This document shows, piece after piece, positions 1 through 14,129 of a stretch of DNA of 21,983 nucleotides. Source of the DNA: a virus; UHGV virus genome UHGV-1604392, one strand, 5' to 3'. The translations under genes were made by a program, and so were the position numbers. Each line of letters opens with the position of its first letter. Position 1 is the first letter of the stretch. Under the pieces are notes generated by a model. It made no database searches, had not been told where the DNA came from, and saw nothing but the letters and a program-made list of their open reading frames with translations.

Positions 1-1119
1 ACATTGAACACGCTATTCGTCGATAAAAACTTGCGTTTTCACGGCCTGATGCAGGCATTTTCCCGCACCAACCGTATTTATGATGCAACTAAAACCTTCG
101 GTAATATCGTCACTTTCCGGGATCTGGAACGCTCAACTATTGATGCCATAACGCTGTTTGGTGACAAAAACACCAAAAATGTGGTGTTAGAAAAGAGTTA
201 TACAGAGTATATGGAAGGCTTTACTGATGCTACTACTGGTGAAGCTAAACGCGGCTTCATGACAGTAGTTTCAGAACTGGAACAACGGTTCCCTGACCCT
301 ACCAGTATTGAAAGTGAAAAAGAGAAGAAAGACTTCGTTAAACTGTTTGGCGAATACCTGCGTGCCGAGAACATCCTGCAAAACTATGATGAATTTGCCA
401 CGCTAAAAGCCCTGCAACAAATCGATCTTAGCGATCCTGTTGCGGTAGAAAAATTCAAAGCAGAACATTATGTGGATGATGAAAAGTTCGCTGAATTGCA
501 AACAATTCGTCTCCCTGCTGATCGCAAGATTCAGGATTATCGTTCTGCCTATAACGATATTCGCGACTGGCAGCGCCGTGAGAAAGAAGCTGAGAAAAAA
601 GAGAAATCAACCACTGACTGGGATGACGTAGTTTTTGAGGTCGATTTGCTGAAGTCTCAGGAAATAAACCTGGATTATATCCTTGGACTGATTTTCGAAC
701 ACAACAGACAAAATAAAGGCAAGGGCGAAATGATCGAAGAGGTCAAACGCTTAATTCGTTCAAGCCTAGGGAACCGTGCTAAAGAGGGCCTGGTGGTCGA
801 TTTTATTCAGCAAACGAACCTGGATGATTTACCGGACAAAGCCAGCATCATTGACGCATTCTTTACGTTTGCTCAACGCGAACAGCAACGTGAAGCAGAA
901 GCATTGATAAAAGAAGAAAATCTCAATGAAGATGCAGCAAAACGCTATATTCGCACGTCTTTAAAACGCGAATATGCCACCGAAAATGGCACAGAATTAA
1001 ACGAAACATTACCAAAACTTAGTCCGTTGAATCCGCAATATAAAACGAAAAAACAGGCAGTTTTCCAGAAAATCGTCTCGTTTATTGAGAAGTTTAAAGG
1101 CGTAGGCGGAAAAATATAG
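1..1119 (+). CDS. hsdR: Type I restriction enzyme R subunit (HsdR), C-terminal part; the 5' end lies upstream of the window
   Basis: Frame is open from the window edge to TAG at 1117-1119. An SF2 helicase motif VI-like QAFSRTNR sits near the start of the fragment, followed by a long helical C-terminal region as in HsdR proteins. Confidence 0.75.
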
Positions 1120-1909: not shown

Positions 1910-1943
1910 AAAAAAATGCTGGTGGGCGCACTCCACCAGCATT
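1910..1943 (-). terminator. Rho-independent terminator on the minus strand (10-bp stem atgctggtgg/ccaccagcat followed by U7), between the 420-aa gene and the phosphatase gene
   Basis: Perfect 10-bp inverted repeat with a 7-nt loop; the A7 run at 1910-1916 gives U7 after the stem on the minus-strand transcript. Confidence 0.6.
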
Positions 1944-1962
1944 AAAAGTGACACTGTAACTA

Positions 1963-3225
1963 TTAGCGGACGTAAATAGTGCCGCCGTTCTCTTTTTCCC
2001 ATGCATCGCTAAGTGCATAGCAAACATCAAGAAGTCTTCTTGCCGCTGTTTCCTCTAAACCCAATTCGACAACCAACTGCTCATGACGGCGGGTAACCAC
2101 ATCAAACAGGGTATGCAGCCCTTTAGTTGCCAGATCATCAATGAATTCCGGTTCGAACGGCAGCTCTGCATCTGCCAACATAACCTCTTGCGCCCACTCA
2201 ACTCGACGGACCAGTTCCGGGCGGCGGCTTTCCATCTCTTTACAGATCAATTCATGGAAGAACTCTACCCAACCTTCCGGCTGGAACTCGCGGAAAATTG
2301 CCAACGGCTGGAAGTTTGGCATCAACCATTCGTTGATTCGGATATCAATGGCATAGCCCATGTCGCAGCAGAACTGATAAGCAAAGTCCAGCTTAGAAAC
2401 GATATAAGGACGCTCGTTATTGAACTCTTTAGGCGATGAGATCCCATAAGCCAGGAGGCGCGGGAAGAAGGAGATTTGCCCTAACGTCGGATGAAGTTTG
2501 CTTGCAGGGAAACGGCGCTCAGTAATGCCATACATTTCCTTCTTGAGCGTCGCAAATTTGGCATTCTCATTAACCAGCGCGGTAACCTCTGCTTTTTTAT
2601 TAGCAAATGCCACGCGCGCCTCGCTTGCATCTTTAATAGTTTTTTTGAGCTGTTGGTTAAGGTCGGCGACCTGCTTACGCAGTTCCTGTCGCTCGCTTTT
2701 AGCTTTGTTATAGCGTTTCTCAAGGTTAAAAGGATCAAGTTTCATGATCTCTTTATATTGAGATTTTAGCGTTGAAATCTGTGAGTTCCGCAGTTCAACC
2801 ATCGCGGTCATTTCATTGAGTTTTGTTTCCAGCTCAATGCTTATACGTTCGGCATTATCAGCACGCTGGTTGGCGTCATGCATCGCATCGTCGATCGCGT
2901 CCTGTTGCTGGCGTTTCAAATGTTCAATTTGCAGCTGAAGCTCTTCAATTTCTTTACCCTTCAGACCAAGATCCAACTGCATATTTTCAGCTGCATCTAC
3001 CAGGGAGTTATGGCTATCAGCTTCTGCGTTATAAACATCAATAAGCTGTGCGTGAAGCATCTCCGCTGACTGAACCGCATTATCAAAAAAACGTGCTGTG
3101 AGGTCATCACAACTAACGCGGCGTTGCGCGGCCCGGATGTTCTGGATAATGGCCGGGATACCGGCATTCAAGACATCAGGGATAGATACATTTTCGATTG
3201 ATTGCTTTTGTGCTGAAGTGCTCAT
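1963..3225 (-). CDS. 420-aa protein: long N-terminal coiled coil (about residues 30-225) plus C-terminal globular domain of unknown function
   Basis: Long ORF; heptad-rich E/K/Q/L sequence; its ATG lies 1 nt after the stop of the upstream 72-aa ORF (tight coupling). No catalytic motif recognised. Confidence 0.75.
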   Translation of the reverse strand: MSTSAQKQSIENVSIPDVLNAGIPAIIQNIRAAQRRVSCDDLTARFFDNAVQSAEMLHAQLIDVYNAEADSHNSLVDAAENMQLDLGLKGKEIEELQLQIEHLKRQQQDAIDDAMHDANQRADNAERISIELETKLNEMTAMVELRNSQISTLKSQYKEIMKLDPFNLEKRYNKAKSERQELRKQVADLNQQLKKTIKDASEARVAFANKKAEVTALVNENAKFATLKKEMYGITERRFPASKLHPTLGQISFFPRLLAYGISSPKEFNNERPYIVSKLDFAYQFCCDMGYAIDIRINEWLMPNFQPLAIFREFQPEGWVEFFHELICKEMESRRPELVRRVEWAQEVMLADAELPFEPEFIDDLATKGLHTLFDVVTRRHEQLVVELGLEETAARRLLDVCYALSDAWEKENGGTIYVR

Positions 3226-3226
3226 T

Positions 3227-3445
3227 TCAAAGTTCCGTATTAGCTTGTGCTTCGGTCATTTTTCCTAAGTATGAAGGAGGAAGGACTACGCAATTTGTAT
3301 CCAGTCCCTCACCTATGGCAGCCTGTAAAATTCTGGCTAAGGTGAGTCTCTTGTTGCGATACCTGGTGATGACATGCCTGATACCGCCGGTCGGCGTAAC
3401 AAAGGCGATCAGCCAGTAGTGATATTTCCGTCGGAATGGCCACAT
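3227..3445 (-). CDS. 72-aa basic small protein, translationally coupled to the 420-aa coiled-coil gene
   Basis: ORF begins right after the operator/palindrome region and ends 1 nt before the next start; function unknown. Confidence 0.55.
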   Translation of the reverse strand: MWPFRRKYHYWLIAFVTPTGGIRHVITRYRNKRLTLARILQAAIGEGLDTNCVVLPPSYLGKMTEAQANTEL

Positions 3446-3459
3446 AGTGCACCCTTTAG

Positions 3460-3476
3460 ATTGCTCTAATAAAAAA
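3460..3476 (+). promoter_or_regulatory. C1-operator-like site (ATTGCTCTAATAAAaaa)
   Basis: 14/17 match to the operator consensus; inverted relative to the site at 3509-3525. Confidence 0.45.
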
Positions 3477-3500
3477 CGTGATGAGTGTACATCACGTTTT
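3471..3500. repeat. Perfect palindrome AAAACGTGATG-agtgta-CATCACGTTTT (11-bp arms) between two inverted operator-like sites
   Basis: Read directly; could be a bidirectional terminator (GC stem flanked by T-runs on both strands) or a dimeric protein-binding site. Confidence 0.5.
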
Positions 3501-3508
3501 AAAAATAT

Positions 3509-3525
3509 GGAATTATTAGAGCAAT
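3509..3525 (-). promoter_or_regulatory. C1-operator-like site (reverse complement ATTGCTCTAATAAtTcc)
   Basis: Motif match immediately upstream (on the minus strand) of the 72-aa/420-aa operon. Confidence 0.55.
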
Positions 3526-3526
3526 A

Positions 3527-4228
3527 TTATTCTGATTCTCGCTCAAAAAACGAGCTAATAAGGGGAAGCCAATCCTCTGACACTTCGCGAGGTCGCGGTT
3601 TGCCGTGGAAAAAGATTATTCGGCAGTCCTTTGGTAATGCCCCATTCCCCCTGGAGTAACGCGCGCTCGCATATTTTGAACCAGGTTCCACAACATCGGC
3701 CTTGTAACTTACAAACCATCCTGGATACAGATCCTGAAATGCTGGTGTATCATCGCCCATAACCTTCCGTAAGAACCCCTGATCACCCCAGCACTCAGTA
3801 GTGACACAACGAGAAATCCAACCTTCCGGATCTTGCCAGAATGAACTCCAGATATGCGCTTTTACACTATTTGGTATCCACAGGGCACCGCTACCACGAT
3901 ATTGTGGATGGTAAAAATCCCTAAGCATGGTGAAGCTGGTTGGTGGATTCTCAAGGATTGGGCGTATATCACCGGCAATAACTGTGTCCAAATCCAGATA
4001 GAACAGATCATCTGTTATATCCGGTCGGAACAACTCGATTTTCGCCCACCAGCCACGGCACTTTTGCCACTGGTTGATCAATGGGACAACTTTGACGCCA
4101 GGTACATGTAAACGCTTCAGGTCTGTCAGGCAAATAATTTCATAGCCTTTTGGCAGTTGATTAACCAGCCACTGCACATCGGAAGCGTTATAGTCACCAC
4201 CAGAGCGAAAAACTAAAGCAATCTTCAT
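3527..4228 (-). CDS. Putative glycosyltransferase-like protein (DxD-type motif YLDLDTV), 233 aa
   Basis: N-terminal [13 protein letters not shown]... followed by LDLD resembles nucleotide-sugar transferase folds; its start overlaps the stop of the phosphatase remnant (ATGA overlap). Confidence 0.55.
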
Positions 4229-4509
4229 GCTGCACCATCACCTTTCACTTTCATCAATGTCAGGTTTCCGCAAAATACGGCACCAGTGTCGATATACTGC
4301 TGATTCCAGAATGTCTTCGGGCTTTTCACCGGAGTGTGACCAAAGATAAAACGATCTGCGCCCGAAATTTCGCCACCAATATCATCCATCGAATCACTGA
4401 TACGCTCGCGCGCCCAGACAACGTTGAAAAGCGGCACCTCCTTACCGAATTGATATTCATTATCCGGATAGTCGGCATGGGCTATAACCTTTTTTCTGCC
4501 CTTCAGCCT
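4225..4509 (-). pseudogene. ppp: C-terminal half of a lambda-type Ser/Thr protein phosphatase (metallophosphatase); frame open without a usable start, N-terminal catalytic motifs absent
   Basis: Translation ...[23 protein letters not shown]...[15 protein letters not shown]...[21 protein letters not shown] closely matches the lambda phosphatase C-terminus as I recall it; the frame opens only after a TGA at about 4510 and overlaps the end of the upstream ORF. Confidence 0.6.
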
Positions 4510-4810
4510 TCATTTTCCCGGCGGTTGCTTTTGAACGTTTCCCTCCGTTAGGCGTTGCATGCAACAGCTCATAGATGTCAGGGTGCTTGCGTTCGATGTA
4601 ATCAAAAATGAAAACCTGCTCGAAGTGCTCGCAATTTCCGTCGCGCAGGTCTGGGTTCTTTGCCAGTGCTGCAAGTGCCTTCGCATGTGGAGAAACTTCT
4701 TTTACCGGCGCAAGCGATAAGAATGGATCCTTTTTGGTTTTTGGCCTGGACCGCCCCTTATTTCGACGCTCACTAAAAGCCTGAAACTCTTCCTCAGTAA
4801 AGCGCAACAT
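4460..4810 (-). CDS. 116-aa ORF; appears to be a degenerate N-terminal phosphatase domain (KKD...RDGNCEH...LL..NGG echoes lambda phosphatase but lacks GDxHG/GDxxDRG/GNHE)
   Basis: ATG at 4810 two nt after the stop of the upstream gene; ends in a different frame from the downstream phosphatase remnant, across an A6 run (about 4491-4496). Confidence 0.5.
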
Positions 4811-4812
4811 AA

Positions 4813-5058
4813 TCAGTCAAATCCTGCCGGTCGCATGCCATATTTACGCTGTTTTGCGGCCTGCTCTTCCCTGTGCCATTGCGCACATTCAGCGTCACAA
4901 TAAATGCCTGATTCAATCGATTCATTGCAGTAACGACACTTCCCTGTAAATACCTGGCTCACGACCTGTGCCTGCTTTCTGATGTTATCGATGGCCATGT
5001 CTTTGAGAGCTTCTAACTGATTCATGCTCAGCTCTGCATCATCAACACGTTCTGCCAA
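4813..5058 (-). CDS. Small zinc-ribbon protein (coiled-coil helix plus CxxC-x9-CxxxC), TraR/DksA-like architecture
   Basis: TTG start with GAGGAA 7 nt upstream; four Cys in a C-terminal cluster after a helical N-terminus. Confidence 0.55.
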   Translation of the reverse strand: MAERVDDAELSMNQLEALKDMAIDNIRKQAQVVSQVFTGKCRYCNESIESGIYCDAECAQWHREEQAAKQRKYGMRPAGFD

Positions 5059-5204: not shown

Positions 5205-5750
5205 ATGGCTACATCAATCACTACAACCCAAAGCACCCGGCAATATCCTCTGTCGCGGTATGACGACCGCAACATAGCCGATCCAATACTCAGGGCAGAG
5301 CTGCGCAAAGAGGTGATGCTTATGTGTGAATCGAACGACAAGAATCTGACGATTTATTACGTTCTTCCCGATGAGCAATATCGCCCGGATTTGCTGGCTT
5401 ACCGTATGTGGGGCATACCTGTTGTGCCTCCCCGTTCCCTAATACGGGGACACTCTGCGGTCGATTTTTTGACGGGGGACGACTCATACCCCGTGGCATC
5501 TGGCTTCTTAGGCCGCTACCATCATCAGATCATCGTTTGCATTTACTTTAATGGTCAGTTTCTAAACCGCCGCAAAGTCGCTAACCATGACGAAAACCCT
5601 GAAAAAAACGCCCACCCGAAGATGGGCAAACTGGAAGCTCGTAACGCACTTCGGCGTTGCCACTTAGGCGCATGGTCAACCTGGCAACTCGGTGGTTTGT
5701 CTGGGAGGACTAGGCCCAGCCATGCTTACCGCCGCGCCTGTCGCGGCTAA
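5205..5750 (+). CDS. Doubtful ORF; only the first ~70 codons look protein-like, the rest is rare-codon rich and overlaps a hairpin cluster
   Basis: No convincing Shine-Dalgarno; downstream part rich in CTA/ATA/CGG/AGG codons with R/H/W/G-rich translation. Confidence 0.2.
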   Translation: MATSITTTQSTRQYPLSRYDDRNIADPILRAELRKEVMLMCESNDKNLTIYYVLPDEQYRPDLLAYRMWGIPVVPPRSLIRGHSAVDFLTGDDSYPVASGFLGRYHHQIIVCIYFNGQFLNRRKVANHDENPEKNAHPKMGKLEARNALRRCHLGAWSTWQLGGLSGRTRPSHAYRRACRG

Positions 5751-5801: not shown

Positions 5802-5818
5802 AAATTTATTAGAGCAAT
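5802..5818 (-). promoter_or_regulatory. C1-operator site, exact 17/17 match (reverse complement ATTGCTCTAATAAATTT), overlapping the methyltransferase stop codon
   Basis: Exact consensus match read from sequence. Confidence 0.65.
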
Positions 5819-8178
5819 ATACCCAAAACGTCATGAGCTACACCTCGAGTGTCTCCCTTACAAGACACAGAACGTCTGGCAAAAAGAGGTTCCACTCTGA
5901 AGCCACTGTCATGATAAAGCTCTCTGATGTTTGGCGCGCCACTGTTAGTAATGAGAACCTTTGCACCTCGACGATGAGCATCCGTCAACAGAGACACCAG
6001 GCGTTTTTGCTCTTCAAACTTAAAGTCATGACCGGAATAGTTCGTGAATCCCTCTGTATTTGGAAGCGGTTCATACGGCGGATCGCAAAAGATGACATCT
6101 CCTTCTCCGGCAGCTTCAATCACCGCTGCAAAATCACCGCATACAAACTCAGACCGCCCTTCCGCACCGAGGAAGGCTTCCATCTCCTGTAATGGGAAAT
6201 ACGGAGTTTTATACTTCCCATAACCGACATTGAACTCACCGGCCTGGTTGTAGCGCGTCAATCCGTTAAAACAATGTCGGTTCAGGAACAAAAACGCCGC
6301 TGCGCGATGTAAATCATCATAGACTTGTTTGTTAAACGCATTCCGTACTGCCAGGTATCCTTCCTGTGTGTTGTAGTCCTGGAAGAAACGATGTGCCAGA
6401 GTGATAAGTGAATGCGCCTCGCGTTGCAGAGTCTTGTAAAAGTTAATCAGGTCAGCATTCACATCATTTAGCAGATTTTCCTGGTATCCGGCATTCATGA
6501 AGACAGCTCCGCCACCAACGAAAGGTTCAATCAAGCGCTTCCCTTCTGGCAAATAGCGAAAGATTTGTTCCAGAACACCAAATTTTCCACCAGCCCATTT
6601 GAATATAGACCGTTCGAATTCTGCCGCTGGTTTAACTTTTCGCTCTTTTGTTTCACTTCCTTCTTTCTGCCGACATACGGCCTTAGTAATCTGATCGCCA
6701 ATCCAGCGCATTACTGGTATTGCCATACTATTGCCGATCGCTTTGTAACGCGGTCCGTCAGCTGCAAGCATCGCGGCCTCTTCTTCGCTTAAATCTGGAT
6801 AGTGATTGCGAAGATATGCCAGTTCATCTGAATTAACTTTTTTACGCTTTTCCGTAGGGATCAACGTATGCCCATCAGGAAAACCTTGCAGCCTTTCACA
6901 TTCGACAGGGGTAAGACGGCGGACAGCTACTTCTGCGTTTCTTACTTCATAGCAAACAGCTGTTGGATTTTTAGCCATTAGAGATGGTGAAGTATTCTTA
7001 GTTGCAGCATGTTGTGTACCGCTCATACGCTCAGGAAAAGCCAATGTAACAAGATGCTCATGGCTTTCTTGCTCACGTGCCCGCAATGTACCATGCCCTT
7101 CTGACCAAAAACCTGCTCCTGTGCTGCTAAAAACGGCAAGATCAGTGGCATCTTTAAAATCTCTTGCCTTTACTGTCGATGCGGTTTCATCGTCAATATA
7201 TTCCCCAAATGCTGCCATCCTGAAAGCGTTTACGGCTTTCGTCGATTTCATACCGGGTGGCATGTCAGCGTGTAGGCATGGATTTAGGCTTTCGCCACTG
7301 ATTGCAGCGCCATTTGCAATAATGGCGGAAGCGATTTCCTTCTTTTTTCGGCTCGGCGCAATATTCCGGCGCACGCCTTCGAACTCAAAAAGTACCGTTG
7401 CGGGATCGAGGTCTGTTCGAGCACTTGCGACAACAAACACGCATCGGCGTCGTTGTGCCACTCCGAAGTATTGGGCATCAAGGATTCTCCAGGCCACTTT
7501 TCGCTGCGGTCCATAAATACAACCACACTGCGGCCACTTTGGAGCATGGCAACCGGTTTTGATATCCCACCGCCAGAACGCGTTACTTTTTCCTGATTCA
7601 GGTCGATCACCTGGTTCGAATGGCGCATCTTCTCCAGCCAATCCGGCAAGGAAACATCCGAAGGCGTTATCTGCCGATGACAAGACTCCTGGGACATTTT
7701 CCCAGACGATAACGGCTGGTTTGAGAAATGACTCAGCCCGTTTGTCGTCAATTGCATTTGCAAGCTCCACATACTTTAAAGTTAGCGCGCCACGCTCATC
7801 ATCAAGCCCACCACGTAATCCAGCGATACTGAATGCCTGACAGTTATGGACCACCGCACCATTGAGGATATAGGAATGATCACCTTCGACTTCTATGTTG
7901 TATACAGTATCTAGGCCTACCGATTTAAACTCTTTGACTGTTCGTAAAAGCATTCCATGAGCCAATCTTGATTTACGTGACAATTTCTGCGGGCAGATTG
8001 TTACCTGATAATAATTCCGTTGATTTACCACGCGATCCTCAATCACTTTTTTGGGCTCAACTTCAATAAAGCTGACCGAAGAAACATAACCACAAGTCTG
8101 TGACAACTCCGCAACGCCCCAAGCAATACTCGCGGCTTCAATTCCACTGCAAACAGATCCATAGCACAGCTCTTTCAC
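5809..8178 (-). CDS. dmt: Bifunctional DNA methyltransferase: N-terminal C5-cytosine MTase domain fused to C-terminal Dam-like N6-adenine MTase domain (P1 Dmt-like)
   Basis: C5 motifs [42 protein letters not shown] and catalytic NCQ; C-terminal [15 protein letters not shown] and DPPY motifs of Dam-type enzymes. GTG start overlaps the stop of the upstream rdgC-like gene. Confidence 0.85.
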
Positions 8179-9525: not shown

Positions 9526-9810
9526 GTGGCAAGTATTGCAACAAAAGACAGCATTTGTTCGGGGCACGGAGGATTCCCATCCAGGCCTCCTGTAGAGAGT
9601 GAACCACTACTTAAAGTCAACGGAGTCGAAGTGTTAGTTGATGGTAAGCAATATGCACAGCATACCGATGGAAACAGTACGCACGGTGGGCAAGCTATAT
9701 CAACCAGGGCATGGTTTACCGTCAATGGTAAAGGGGTCGTATGCGTTGGTGACCCTGTTTCATGCGGCTCTACCGTAGCGTCAGGAGACGGCCTGGTTCA
9801 GGTAAGTTAG
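9526..9810 (+). CDS. PAAR-like small beta-rich protein (94 aa)
   Basis: Repeats of VNG...V.VGD strands (LKVNGVEVLVDG, FTVNGKGVVCVGD) plus CSGHGG and THGG motifs resembling PAAR spike-tip proteins; GTG start. Confidence 0.45.
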   Translation: MASIATKDSICSGHGGFPSRPPVESEPLLKVNGVEVLVDGKQYAQHTDGNSTHGGQAISTRAWFTVNGKGVVCVGDPVSCGSTVASGDGLVQVS

Positions 9811-11760: not shown

Positions 11761-11794
11761 GCCGCGTCATTACTGGCCTGAAATGGGATCAACA

Positions 11795-11898
11795 TTGACT
11801 ATACGCGATTTTATGTTGACTGTGCACGATTTATTGTTGACTGCACGCGATTTATTGTTGACTATACGCGACAGAAACATTGACTGTAAGCGATTTTA
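11795..11898 (+). repeat. incC-type iterons: five direct repeats of about 19 bp (TTGACTryrCGCGATTT-like) at 21-22-bp spacing, upstream of repA
   Basis: Repeat starts at about 11795, 11816, 11837, 11858 and 11880, read from sequence. Confidence 0.8.
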
Positions 11899-11974
11899 GA
11901 GTCTGAATATTCACAGCTGTTGATAACAGCCATCCAAATTGACGTCAGGCCGCGCCACACATGGAGAAACTGCG

Positions 11975-12859
11975 ATGCCGGAAGAAAGTAAAGGCTTCCT
12001 TAGCGTTGAAGAAGTTGCAGGAAATACAGGAGAAATCCACAGCCTGAAGCCCAATAACAACAGCACTATACAACCCATCGCTTTGTTGCGCTTAGGTGTG
12101 TTTGTGCCAACCTTAAAATCTACCAATGTGGCGCTACGTCGCGGATCGTCAGTTACTACAAACACAACGAACGCAACCGAAGAACTATCAAGCCTCAAAA
12201 TTGTTGAGCAGGAAGGCTATGAGGGAATTGAAATTCATGGTCCACGCCTGGATATGGATACTGATTTTAAGGTGTGGGTGGGCATAACCTCCGCGTTGTT
12301 TGACTACGCACCTGATGATGACGGCATAATCACCCTGCCATTCTCCGAGTTTGCCGATCGATGCGGCTATCCACGTAAGCGCCTTTCAAAGGCGTTCCGT
12401 AAAAGTATTGATGACTCTCTGACACGCATTCAGCAGACAGTTGTCAAATTCCGCTTCCCGGCGGCAAAAGGTCATCTCAATAACATTAACGTCAACTTGT
12501 TGGCATATAGCAGCCTGAATACCGAGCTTGATGTTATCGAGATCCAGCCGCAGAAACAGCTATCTGAACTTTACTATGTTGACTATAAGCGAATCCTGAA
12601 GCTGAAGATGCTGGATAAACTAGGGCGCAAAGAGACGGCCAAGGTACTGTATACATTCTTTGAGGCTCTACCCGCCAACCCGGCACCTGTCAGCATTGAG
12701 CGCCTTAGAGCGAGGCTTAATCTCAAATCATCCGTTAGCGTGCAAAATAGCGTTATCAGAAAAGCCATGAAAGATTTGGAAGCTATTGAATATCTTAAAT
12801 TTTCAGAGATAAAAAACGGCAGGAAAATCGGCTTCCAGATCCATAAGCGCAATCCATAA
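11975..12859 (+). CDS. repA: Replication initiator RepA (P1 RepA family), about 294 aa from ATG at 11975
   Basis: Flanked by iterons on both sides; LRLGVFVP and GPRLDMDTDFKVW segments match P1 RepA as I recall it; GGAGAAA 8 nt upstream of the ATG. The ORF-track start at 11939 is a TTG inside the iteron region. Confidence 0.85.
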   Translation: MPEESKGFLSVEEVAGNTGEIHSLKPNNNSTIQPIALLRLGVFVPTLKSTNVALRRGSSVTTNTTNATEELSSLKIVEQEGYEGIEIHGPRLDMDTDFKVWVGITSALFDYAPDDDGIITLPFSEFADRCGYPRKRLSKAFRKSIDDSLTRIQQTVVKFRFPAAKGHLNNINVNLLAYSSLNTELDVIEIQPQKQLSELYYVDYKRILKLKMLDKLGRKETAKVLYTFFEALPANPAPVSIERLRARLNLKSSVSVQNSVIRKAMKDLEAIEYLKFSEIKNGRKIGFQIHKRNP

Positions 12860-12861
12860 TA

Positions 12862-13118
12862 TTGACTATATGCGATAGCGAGAAGTTGACTATAGGCGAC
12901 ATTCGTTGACGCTGGTGGATTTTTGCTGGCGTCAATATTCTGCAAGTCGCTATTGAGATGGCTTTTAGGGGCATTTCATCGCGTATAGTCAACGTTTCTC
13001 CCGACAATATCTTACATAGTCGATCTTTGGTGGAGTTAAATCGACTACAGTCAACTTTTGACTGTAGGCACATCGCGCATAGTCAACTATTCACATTAAC
13101 CTTCGCGCATAGTCAACA
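12862..13118. repeat. incA-type iteron array: about nine copies of the same motif in both orientations (TTGACTATA... and ...TATAGTCAA), downstream of repA
   Basis: Copies counted by eye, starting at about 12862 and ending at about 13118. Confidence 0.75.
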
Positions 13119-13151
13119 TTTGCGCGGTTCTCATCAAGCAGTGGTATTGAT

Positions 13152-13961
13152 ATGCAAGAAGAGAAACAACACTACCTCTACGTTCTGGTGCCAGAGAACG
13201 GAGATACTTTTAAAATCGGCATTTCATGTGGTCCATTGGCACGGTTTAAAGGGCTACAAGTGAGTCCCGATTTTGCGCTTTCACGGGTCTATCGTGGTAC
13301 GCGTTTGGCAATGGTTAATCTTGAGCGGGCTTTACACGCAACCTTTTTCCCCTGGAATGCGCCGTGGGAGAAAAGCGCCGGTGGCGGGCATACTGAATGG
13401 TTTACACGAGAGTGTCTTGATAAGGTTTTGGCTTATATCGAATATCTAAATGATATGTGGGGAGGGATTCTCGAGCGCATTAAGTCGAATGATTTACTTC
13501 AGCGTCCAGTAGATGCTGCTTGCTCTTTCGAAAAAGAGCTGGATGTTACTTCTATCGTGACTTTCAAAGATGACGCAGGAATGAGGGACGTGGCTTATGT
13601 CTCCATATCTGGCTATGAACCGGACGCGATCCGCGCTCAATGTGAATTGCTGAAAGCAATGTTTATGCTTCGGACTAAATATCCCTGGGATACAGGGCGG
13701 GTGTGCTTCCCTATGGAAGAGTTAACCGCCACCATTGATTCCCAGCTTTACCACGATAATCCAGAGAAGTTTTTTAGCCTTTTAGCCGATAATGGGCTTA
13801 ACTGTGTGTCCGGGCTGGGGCGAAGTAGAATCCAACATGCCTCGCTCTTCGGTCCCTTCTTTTACGATCGACACGGGTACTTTGAGGCTGAACTTCCGGC
13901 GCTTACGCGTGCTATAGATACTATCGATTTCGAACGATTATTCGCTGCTCTTAGCAAATAA
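13152..13961 (+). CDS. T5orf172/GIY-YIG-superfamily domain protein (N-terminal ~100 aa) with C-terminal domain of unknown function, 269 aa
   Basis: YLYVL...(10 aa)...KIGIS spacing typical of GIY-x10-YIG, Arg 8 residues later (GPLAR), then ...NLERALH...TEWF; followed by its own terminator. Confidence 0.65.
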   Translation: MQEEKQHYLYVLVPENGDTFKIGISCGPLARFKGLQVSPDFALSRVYRGTRLAMVNLERALHATFFPWNAPWEKSAGGGHTEWFTRECLDKVLAYIEYLNDMWGGILERIKSNDLLQRPVDAACSFEKELDVTSIVTFKDDAGMRDVAYVSISGYEPDAIRAQCELLKAMFMLRTKYPWDTGRVCFPMEELTATIDSQLYHDNPEKFFSLLADNGLNCVSGLGRSRIQHASLFGPFFYDRHGYFEAELPALTRAIDTIDFERLFAALSK

Positions 13962-13965
13962 CACT

Positions 13966-13990
13966 GATGCCCCTGAACGGGGCTTTTTTG
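13966..13990 (+). terminator. Rho-independent terminator (GCCCC-tgaac-GGGGC followed by TTTTTT)
   Basis: Read directly from sequence, 5 nt after the stop codon. Confidence 0.7.
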
Positions 13991-14129
13991 TGCCCTCCTT
14001 GTAACTCTCAATCGTGCAAAATGAACCAAACATGCAGAGAATGCTATGTACAAGCATCTACGCATACATTATTATTTTATGCAGCATTTTTAATTAAATT
14101 CAAAAATACAGCATAAAGGATGACTTTCG

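Follow-up and report, generated by a model that had tools for sequence, protein, structure and literature searches.

The UHGV virus genome UHGV-1604392 carries, in the 21,983-nucleotide stretch analyzed here (the window), a two-gene unit on the minus strand that encodes a 72-amino-acid (aa) and a 420-aa protein and that its sequence identifies as the pmgR-pmgS operon of a P1-like phage-plasmid. The explanation that we put forward, and that we hold with about even confidence, is that the products of this operon have an early action on intracellular phage DNA, that they are not components of the particle, and that PmgR serves as the partner of PmgS. We consider the following settled: which genes these are, the anatomy of the operators, terminator and open reading frames (ORFs), the function and essentiality of pmgR, the dispensability of PmgS, the strict pairing of PmgR with PmgS in the relatives compared, the presence of a C-terminal domain with two helix-hairpin-helix units, (HhH)2, in the PmgS family, and the association of the wider family with recombination modules. 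The locus itself is textbook P1, and the gene pair and its operators are already known, having been annotated since 2004; the annotation of the pair is reportedly owed to Lobocka et al. 2004. The interest lies in the function of an essential P1 gene, pmgR being among the few that are without a known molecular role, and in a testable reinterpretation of it.

Identity and Anatomy of the Locus

Both ORFs were confirmed on the minus strand, and their junction reads CTT TGA A ATG, that is, a stop codon, one nucleotide and a start codon. The 2.6 kb around the pair are 98–99% identical at the nucleotide level to P1, P7, SJ46, RCS47 and others, and the counterpart region of P1, 82232–83714, shows ~98% nucleotide identity. 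The gene order pmgQ, Op86a/b, pmgR, pmgS, pap and Op88 is as in P1, whose record (AF234172) names the two ORFs pmgR and pmgS; the P7 record names the pair shtA/shtB and annotates it as 'sheath structure/contraction'. PmgS matches PHROG 1660 over its residues 1–420 (E = 1.7e-194) and PmgR matches PHROG 3177 over its residues 1–72 (E = 4.3e-47). The features of the operon and its upstream neighbor, in the direction of transcription, are as follows:

3527–4228, minus strand: pmgQ, 'glycosyltransferase' in PHROG, without a Pfam match
3509–3525, minus strand: C1 operator Op86a (OpmgRa), ATTGCTCTAATAATTCC, 14/17 positions as in the consensus; P1 annotation mapped at 98% identity
3496–3524, minus strand: predicted sigma-70 promoter PpmgR, −35 TTGCTC at 3519–3524, 17-nt spacer, −10 TAAAAC at 3496–3501; a GenBank prediction
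3473–3500, minus strand: inter-operator hairpin of 11 bp with A-run and T-run flanks; −13.4 kcal/mol, z = −5.0
3460–3476, plus strand: C1 operator Op86b (OpmgRb), ATTGCTCTAATAAAAAA, 14/17 positions as in the consensus, inverted relative to Op86a; P1 annotation
3452–3456, minus strand: Shine-Dalgarno-like AAGGG, 6 nt 5′ of the pmgR ATG, as read from the sequence
3227–3445, minus strand: pmgR, 72 aa, isoelectric point (pI) 10.1, 8.3 kDa; essential in P1 (PMC9024508)
1963–3225, minus strand: pmgS, 420 aa, pI 5.2, start codon 1 nt past the pmgR stop codon; dispensable in P1 (PMC9024508 Table S3)
1915–1943, minus strand: intrinsic terminator at the end of the operon, with a stem of 11 bp (6 of them G-C) and T7 after it; −18.8 kcal/mol, z = −3.7

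The original prediction had described a basic 72-aa protein coupled through a 1-nt gap to a 420-aa protein, behind inverted operators and ahead of a strong terminator. All of these elements lie where it had placed them, and the pI of the small protein agrees with the word basic. It had assigned neither protein to a known family, which no longer holds, as the pair is P1 PmgR/PmgS by nucleotide identity and by both PHROG matches. It had also named homology to a characterized P1 backbone pair with a known housekeeping function as evidence against itself: the homology is clear, and the known housekeeping function is lacking.

Repressor Control of the Operon

Seven matches to the P1 C1-operator consensus, ATTGCTCTAATAAATTT, occur in the window where shuffling would lead one to expect 0.09, and one match at 1368–1384 (−) is Op88. 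Op86a begins 2 nt past the pmgQ stop codon and overlaps the predicted −35 of PpmgR. The record AF234172 describes Op86a and Op86b as 'monovalent C1-controlled operators OpmgRa/OpmgRb (former Op86a/b)' that control the expression of pmgR and pmgS, and the P7 record also annotates both sites as C1 operators. The P1 annotation thereby supports the earlier view of a tightly coupled two-gene module under phage-repressor operators, and the pair should therefore be expressed on induction. PpmgR is weak: its −10 lacks the final T, and it fell below the filter of our consensus promoter scan. Literature searches for Op86 and for a 'PmgS-like' function gave nothing relevant.

None of 200 shuffles was as stable as the hairpin between the two operators, which is terminator-like for the ppp-pmgQ transcript. 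A transcript from PpmgR would begin inside this hairpin and would be devoid of its 5′ arm, so that, judging by the positions, the hairpin could stop ppp-pmgQ transcripts and spare those of pmgR-pmgS.

The arrangement recurs in relatives of the operon. A relative with 53% protein identity has the same layout of an operator, a hairpin, an inverted half-operator and pmgR, and a hairpin analogous to the inter-operator hairpin is present in L004. The more distant locus L003 (27% PmgS identity) has no C1-type sites; upstream of its pmgR homolog, at 9704–9750, lies a perfect 15-bp inverted repeat, AAGATACTAATTTAT, which occurs at no other place in this 18-kb locus and probably serves as operator in another immunity type. 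Since the relatives either keep the operator layout or replace it with the 15-bp inverted repeat, repressor-type control of the pair appears to persist in spite of a changed operator sequence.

Architecture of PmgS

In the AlphaFold 2 (AF2) model, PmgS consists of an N-terminal helix, two very long helices, an α/β domain and a five-helix C-terminal domain, the last three of which map to the window as follows:

2530–3105, minus strand: long helices, residues 41–146 and 165–232, from DSSP of the AF2 model
2176–2523, minus strand: α/β domain, residues ~235–350, three main strands and then helices; RINEWLxP and RPELVRRVEWA are its conserved motifs
1981–2163, minus strand: (HhH)2 domain, residues ~355–415, five helices, of the type of the Rad51/RadA N-terminal domain, NusA AR and the RNA polymerase α-CTD

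The C-terminal domain has the five-helix fold with two HhH units. The original prediction of a coiled coil followed by a C-terminal globular domain was right as to the long helices and the globular part behind them; its description of the C-terminal part, as being without a recognizable catalytic motif, has to be amended in that the last ~60 residues form the (HhH)2 domain. Because PmgS carries this domain of the Rad51 N-terminal type, it likely binds DNA. Searches of Pfam, NCBIfam and PADLOC with PmgS returned coiled-coil noise alone (TPR, LPP, SMC, Rad50 and LmuB), far below the cut-offs.

The most conserved motif of the family, KEIMKLDPxxL (residues 158–168; 2722–2754 (−)), with K158, E159, L163, D164, P165 and L168 invariant, falls in the low-confidence segment that joins the long helices. 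It would cap the tip of a helical hairpin if the long helices fold back on each other.

Pairing of PmgR with PmgS

PmgR is predicted to fold into a β-hairpin, a helix, a strand and a short helix (AF2; mean predicted local distance difference test (pLDDT) 86). It has no match in Pfam, NCBIfam or PADLOC, and sequence searches found no homolog of PmgR or of PmgS among PDB chains. The homologs of PmgR, down to 27% identity, are all ~70–75 aa long, and several lie on contigs of 85–100 kb. In every inspected relative that has PmgR, its homolog lies directly 5′ of a PmgS homolog, including two clades in which PmgS is ~22% identical and PmgQ is absent. A PmgR profile found nothing near the genes of the recombination-module clades of the PmgS family.

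The two proteins also diverge together. The identities of PmgQ, PmgR and PmgS to those of the window are 67/52/53%, 56/36/27% and 57/30/26% in three relatives, so that PmgR and PmgS change faster than PmgQ, which stays at 56–67% against 26–53% for the pair. Their charges are opposite, with a pI of 10.1 for PmgR and 5.2 for PmgS. Only in clades with PmgR does PmgS bear the N-terminal motif [RK]RVxxDDLxx[RK]F, from which we infer that this motif is a candidate docking site for PmgR.

Phenotypes of pmgR and the 'Morphogenetic' Label

Gonzales et al. 2022 (PMC9024508) deleted genes of P1 in frame. The ΔpmgR phage formed no infectious virions and yielded tails and incomplete heads, resembling the pacA packaging knockout with its tails and unfilled heads, and it was the sole one of five new essential-gene knockouts whose plaques were rescued by the cloned gene in trans (PMC9024508). 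Because the in-frame deletion was rescued in trans, the 72-aa ORF is certainly functional. In the same study, PmgR was not found in the virion proteome using liquid chromatography-tandem mass spectrometry (LC-MS/MS), and HHpred on PmgR found nothing (PMC9024508). A dCas12a CRISPR interference (CRISPRi) screen scored both genes as non-essential, with an efficiency of plating (EOP) of 0.94 for pmgR and 1.2 for pmgS; its authors list pmgR among five essential genes that their screen missed, and the dCas12a roadblocks are polar on downstream genes (PMC10695390).

The 2026 cryo-electron microscopy (cryo-EM) study of the whole P1 virion (PMC12810830) states that almost all proteins from head to tail were identified. 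It names gp23, DarA and Hdf in the head; Prt, PmgC and gp7 in the connector; the terminator gp24, the sheath gp22 and the tube BplB in the tail; and ten baseplate proteins, and PmgR and PmgS are not among the virion proteins named. As neither is named there and neither has a PDB match, a structural role for PmgR or PmgS is unlikely. A virion head-completion or connector protein, which we considered as a candidate, is disfavored indirectly by the absence of both from the cryo-EM names, by the LC-MS/MS (for PmgR) and by the PDB searches.

The P1 neighborhood of the pair is enzymatic. Pap, encoded downstream of pmgS, is a PNKP-type HAD phosphatase, Ppp is a NinI-like phosphoesterase and PmgL a DksA-like zinc-finger protein. 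For PmgM, the resemblance is to the VRR-NUC family (Pfam, 21.2 bits with the cut-off at 23.8) and to Holliday-junction-resolvase families (PHROG 5702, E = 3e-21 in a relative). PmgM and PmgL lie at 4460–4810 and 4813–5058 of the window (−), and the corresponding positions in relatives are 8550–9128 in L001 and 4124–4699 in L063. The PmgM of the window is truncated to 116 aa and belongs to PHROG 2363, of which full-length members also match the Holliday-junction-resolvase PHROG and, slightly short of the threshold, Pfam VRR_NUC. Several 'putative morphogenetic' genes of the P1 block look like DNA-metabolism or regulatory genes, and the block looks more like the lambdoid nin region than like a morphogenesis cluster. 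The 'morphogenetic' labels were given by map position and taken over by PHROG, and in PHROG and RefSeq the name now reads 'PmgS-like head morphogenesis'. For the pair, the label looks wrong in view of the Rad51-type HhH domain of PmgS, the place of its wider family in phage recombination modules, the absence of both proteins from those named in the virion structure and their strict, co-diverging pairing.

The main alternative to our explanation is that PmgR is a non-virion assembly cofactor and that PmgS is an unrelated, dispensable accessory that shares its transcript. The tails and incomplete heads of the pmgR knockout are also those of the adaptor (pmgC) knockout, and the rescue in trans suits a cofactor of this kind (PMC9024508); the sheath annotation of P7 shtA/shtB and the 'head morphogenesis' label that PHROG gives the PmgS family point in the same direction. 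However, those labels derive from map position, the promoter is an early C1-controlled one with no late promoter annotated in the P1 record, and a co-diverging pairing of two unrelated proteins would go unexplained. We consider this alternative somewhat unlikely.

The Wider PmgS Family and Recombination Modules

A word-indexed search with PmgS returned P1-like relatives only; an exhaustive profile search returned 122 representative clusters, mostly of 360–470 aa. PHROG 1660 matched all of the family members scanned (62/62), and the C-terminal matches among these 62 were to Pfam HHH_5 in 19 and to RNA_pol_A_CTD in 13. The genomic context was taken from 37 non-P1 viral loci, many of them closely related to one another. 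A recombination exonuclease (RecE-like/YqaJ, ExoVIII or PHROG-255) lies on the same strand and within 1.3 kb of the PmgS-like gene in 33 of the 37. The loci show five architectures, four of which include the exonuclease:

Architecture 1: RecE-like (YqaJ domain), PmgS-like, 137-aa unknown protein
Architecture 2: ExoVIII, RecT, PmgS-like
Architecture 3: PHROG-255 exonuclease, 129-aa unknown protein, PmgS-like, PHROG 1372
Architecture 4: PmgS-like, 213-aa unknown protein, exonuclease
Architecture 5 (a minority): repressor or DUF2303 upstream of PmgS-like and a DNA methyltransferase downstream, without an exonuclease

In some loci, RecT or another annealing protein adjoins the PmgS-like gene: RecT separates the PmgS-like gene from the exonuclease in L006–L008 and L015, and the single-strand annealing protein (SSAP) family PHROG 2449 was found in 2 of the 13 loci whose neighbors were scanned. 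This co-occurrence of RecT or another SSAP suggests that the PmgS family is a third component of such modules and not their annealing protein. Third genes of exonuclease/annealing modules are familiar from lambda gam, beside exo-bet, and from P22 abc/arf, beside erf.

Chromosomal copies of PmgS-like genes occur in Brenneria, Pectobacterium, Serratia, Yersinia and Citrobacter. Among 74 full-length family representatives (P0060–P0178), 29 end in Ala-Ala, against 0.6 expected from composition; these ends resemble the ssrA-type tails recognized by ClpX, and PmgS of the P1 lineage ends in ...IYVR. The idea that the Ala-Ala tail and the PmgR partner are alternative restraints on PmgS was rejected, as the L061 clade has both. 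Truncated PmgS clusters (P0008), considered as natural knockouts, were uninformative: at the end of its contig, the representative proves to be an IS-type junction, and the truncated P0008 PmgS is seen on no complete plasmid.

The place of these genes bears on a second alternative, that of an early host-takeover or anti-defense module in which PmgS is, for example, a Gam/Abc-like inhibitor of or decoy for a host nuclease (RecBCD) and PmgR its cofactor. The original prediction had expected a function of this kind from the timing, and the early repressor-controlled expression, the dispensability of PmgS in laboratory hosts, the faster evolution of PmgR and PmgS relative to their neighbor PmgQ and the 'third gene' place of the PmgS family, like that of lambda Gam and P22 Abc, would all suit it. 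It receives no direct support: the ΔpmgS phage plates normally, makes infectious virions and shows 'normal restriction' on EcoA, EcoB and EcoK (PMC9024508 Table S3), which also speaks against a Dar-like anti-restriction role of pmgS on these hosts. Nor does it explain why pmgR is needed for infectious virions in a restriction-less host or why the heads are incomplete, and neither similarity to known inhibitors nor a PADLOC-relevant match was found. We rate it as improbable, and such likelihood as it has lies mainly in a possible anti-nuclease role.

A third alternative, that the PmgS-like proteins are a new family of single-strand annealing recombinases replacing RecT beside the exonuclease, could appeal to the usual annealing-gene place directly 3′ of the YqaJ-type exonuclease in the RecE-type loci and to the three strands followed by a helix in the central domain of the AF2 model, but it was rejected as very improbable because RecT or another SSAP co-occurs in the loci named above, no fold or sequence match to Rad52, RecT, Redβ or Erf was found, and P1 has no partner exonuclease near pmgS.

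Proposed Action of PmgR and PmgS

In our explanation of an early operon that acts on intracellular DNA, C1, as annotated, would bind Op86a and Op86b in the lysogen, bracketing the predicted promoter, and the inter-operator hairpin would stop ppp-pmgQ transcription, so that the pair would depend on its own repressor-controlled promoter and be made early after induction. PmgS would be a long-helical, probably oligomeric and likely DNA-binding protein. PmgR, a small basic α/β protein limited to the P1 lineage and some relatives further off, would be its dedicated partner or regulator. The pair would act on what replication or recombination supplies as the substrate of packaging, and would not be a building block of the particle.

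Several points weigh against this explanation. PpmgR is a prediction only, and the link to recombination is one of guilt by association, drawn from clades whose PmgS-like proteins are 15–25% identical to P1 PmgS, with neither an exonuclease nor an annealing gene next to pmgS in P1. The AF2 model of PmgS is of moderate quality (pLDDT 74, predicted template modeling score 0.43, 9 sequences), and its α/β domain has no structural or family match. The glycines of the HhH hairpin are degenerate in the P1 lineage (ELGLEETAARRLL) compared with KGIGxKTAxxI in relatives; the hairpin motif reads ELGLEETA in the PmgS of the window, where Pfam does not call HHH_5, and KGIGxKTA in most relatives, and DNA binding is possibly weakened in the P1 lineage for this reason. 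(HhH)2/SAM-like domains can also mediate protein contacts, as in NusA AR and the α-CTD. Small, low-copy or disordered proteins can escape mass spectrometry and cryo-EM, and the phenotype of unjoined heads equally fits a non-virion assembly factor.

A narrower form of the explanation, which we regard as rather unlikely, is that PmgR is needed only to restrain PmgS. Unrestrained PmgS would hold the phage DNA in an unpackageable state, e.g., bound at ends or branches, and PmgR may dock on the P1-clade N-terminal motif of PmgS, thereby releasing or tuning it. Such a restraint would explain why the deletion of pmgR is lethal, why that of pmgS is harmless and why a polar CRISPRi knock-down of pmgR is harmless as well. 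The contrast between the lethal in-frame ΔpmgR and the near-normal plating under the polar pmgR roadblock is equally explained by a weak roadblock, as the screen missed four other essential genes. If the restraint is real, a part of the 'putative morphogenetic' block of P1 becomes a nin-like DNA-metabolism region. P1 is also a widely used chassis for transduction and delivery, and whether pmgR and pmgS can be removed jointly bears on the minimization of its genome.

Other Features of the Window

Compared with P1, the window is without two blocks, with junctions at 4484–4488 and 5416–5417. The first (P1 79177–81188) comprises the pmgM 3′ end, pmgN-P and the ppp 5′ part; the second (P1 69075–78242) comprises tRNAs, plp, upl, tciABC, ban, dbn, genes 5, 6, 24, 7 and 25 and part of 26, and its genes 5, 6, 24, 7, 25 and 26 are tail and baseplate genes. 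In the 12 best plasmid matches listed, the window is covered only as 4–5 pieces spread over ~32–35 kb. Either the window is a composite, or the element would be a defective phage.

The dmt gene (5809–8178, −) contains a 276-bp segment absent from P1 at 7843–8117, in the N-terminus of Dmt. The catalytic Cys of the C5-methyltransferase motif comes right after the end of the extra segment (...NGAVVHN|CQAFS), and in Dmt residues 71–112 we found a match to the C-terminal block of the mini-intein of Spl DnaX (E = 3.5e-4). With this mini-intein match, and with ~57 aa of the normal Dmt sequence missing, the insert looks like a truncated intein remnant. Most of the extra segment is carried by many P1-like plasmids.

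The C-terminal part of HsdR, a type I restriction enzyme, is encoded at 4–1119 (+), just beyond Op88, in the place of P1 pmgT-pmgV. This position fits a note in the P1 record that the junction matches the DNA flanking the EcoDXXI and R124/3 hsd loci. Around the plasmid replication region, ~2.3 kb at 11770–14030 have no BLAST match to P1 while both flanks match, which suggests a different replicon or incompatibility type.

Comparison with Known Systems

The operon of the window shares with that of P1 the ORF lengths (72 and 420 aa), the 1-nt junction, the operators, the pmgQ and pap neighbors and the terminator. The surroundings alone differ, with hsdR in place of pmgT-V downstream of Op88 and the big blocks upstream of pmgQ absent.

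PmgS has in common with the N-terminal domain of Rad51/RadA/Dmc1, with NusA AR and with the RNA polymerase α-CTD the five-helix (HhH)2 domain. Unlike Rad51/RadA/Dmc1, it has no ATPase core, and in PmgS a long helical region and the unmatched α/β domain precede this domain.

Like lambda gam and P22 abc/arf, the PmgS-like genes of other temperate phages lie on the same strand beside genes for RecE-like/YqaJ, ExoVIII or RecT proteins. However, PmgS resembles neither Gam nor Abc in sequence or fold, and the P1 gene is not beside an exonuclease.

Although the pair has no homology to any toxin-antitoxin family and its phenotype is a block of virion completion instead of host killing, it resembles the poison-antidote pairs in that a small, basic and essential upstream gene product is coupled to a larger, acidic and dispensable downstream one, and in that a polar knock-down of both, if the roadblock was effective, is tolerated.

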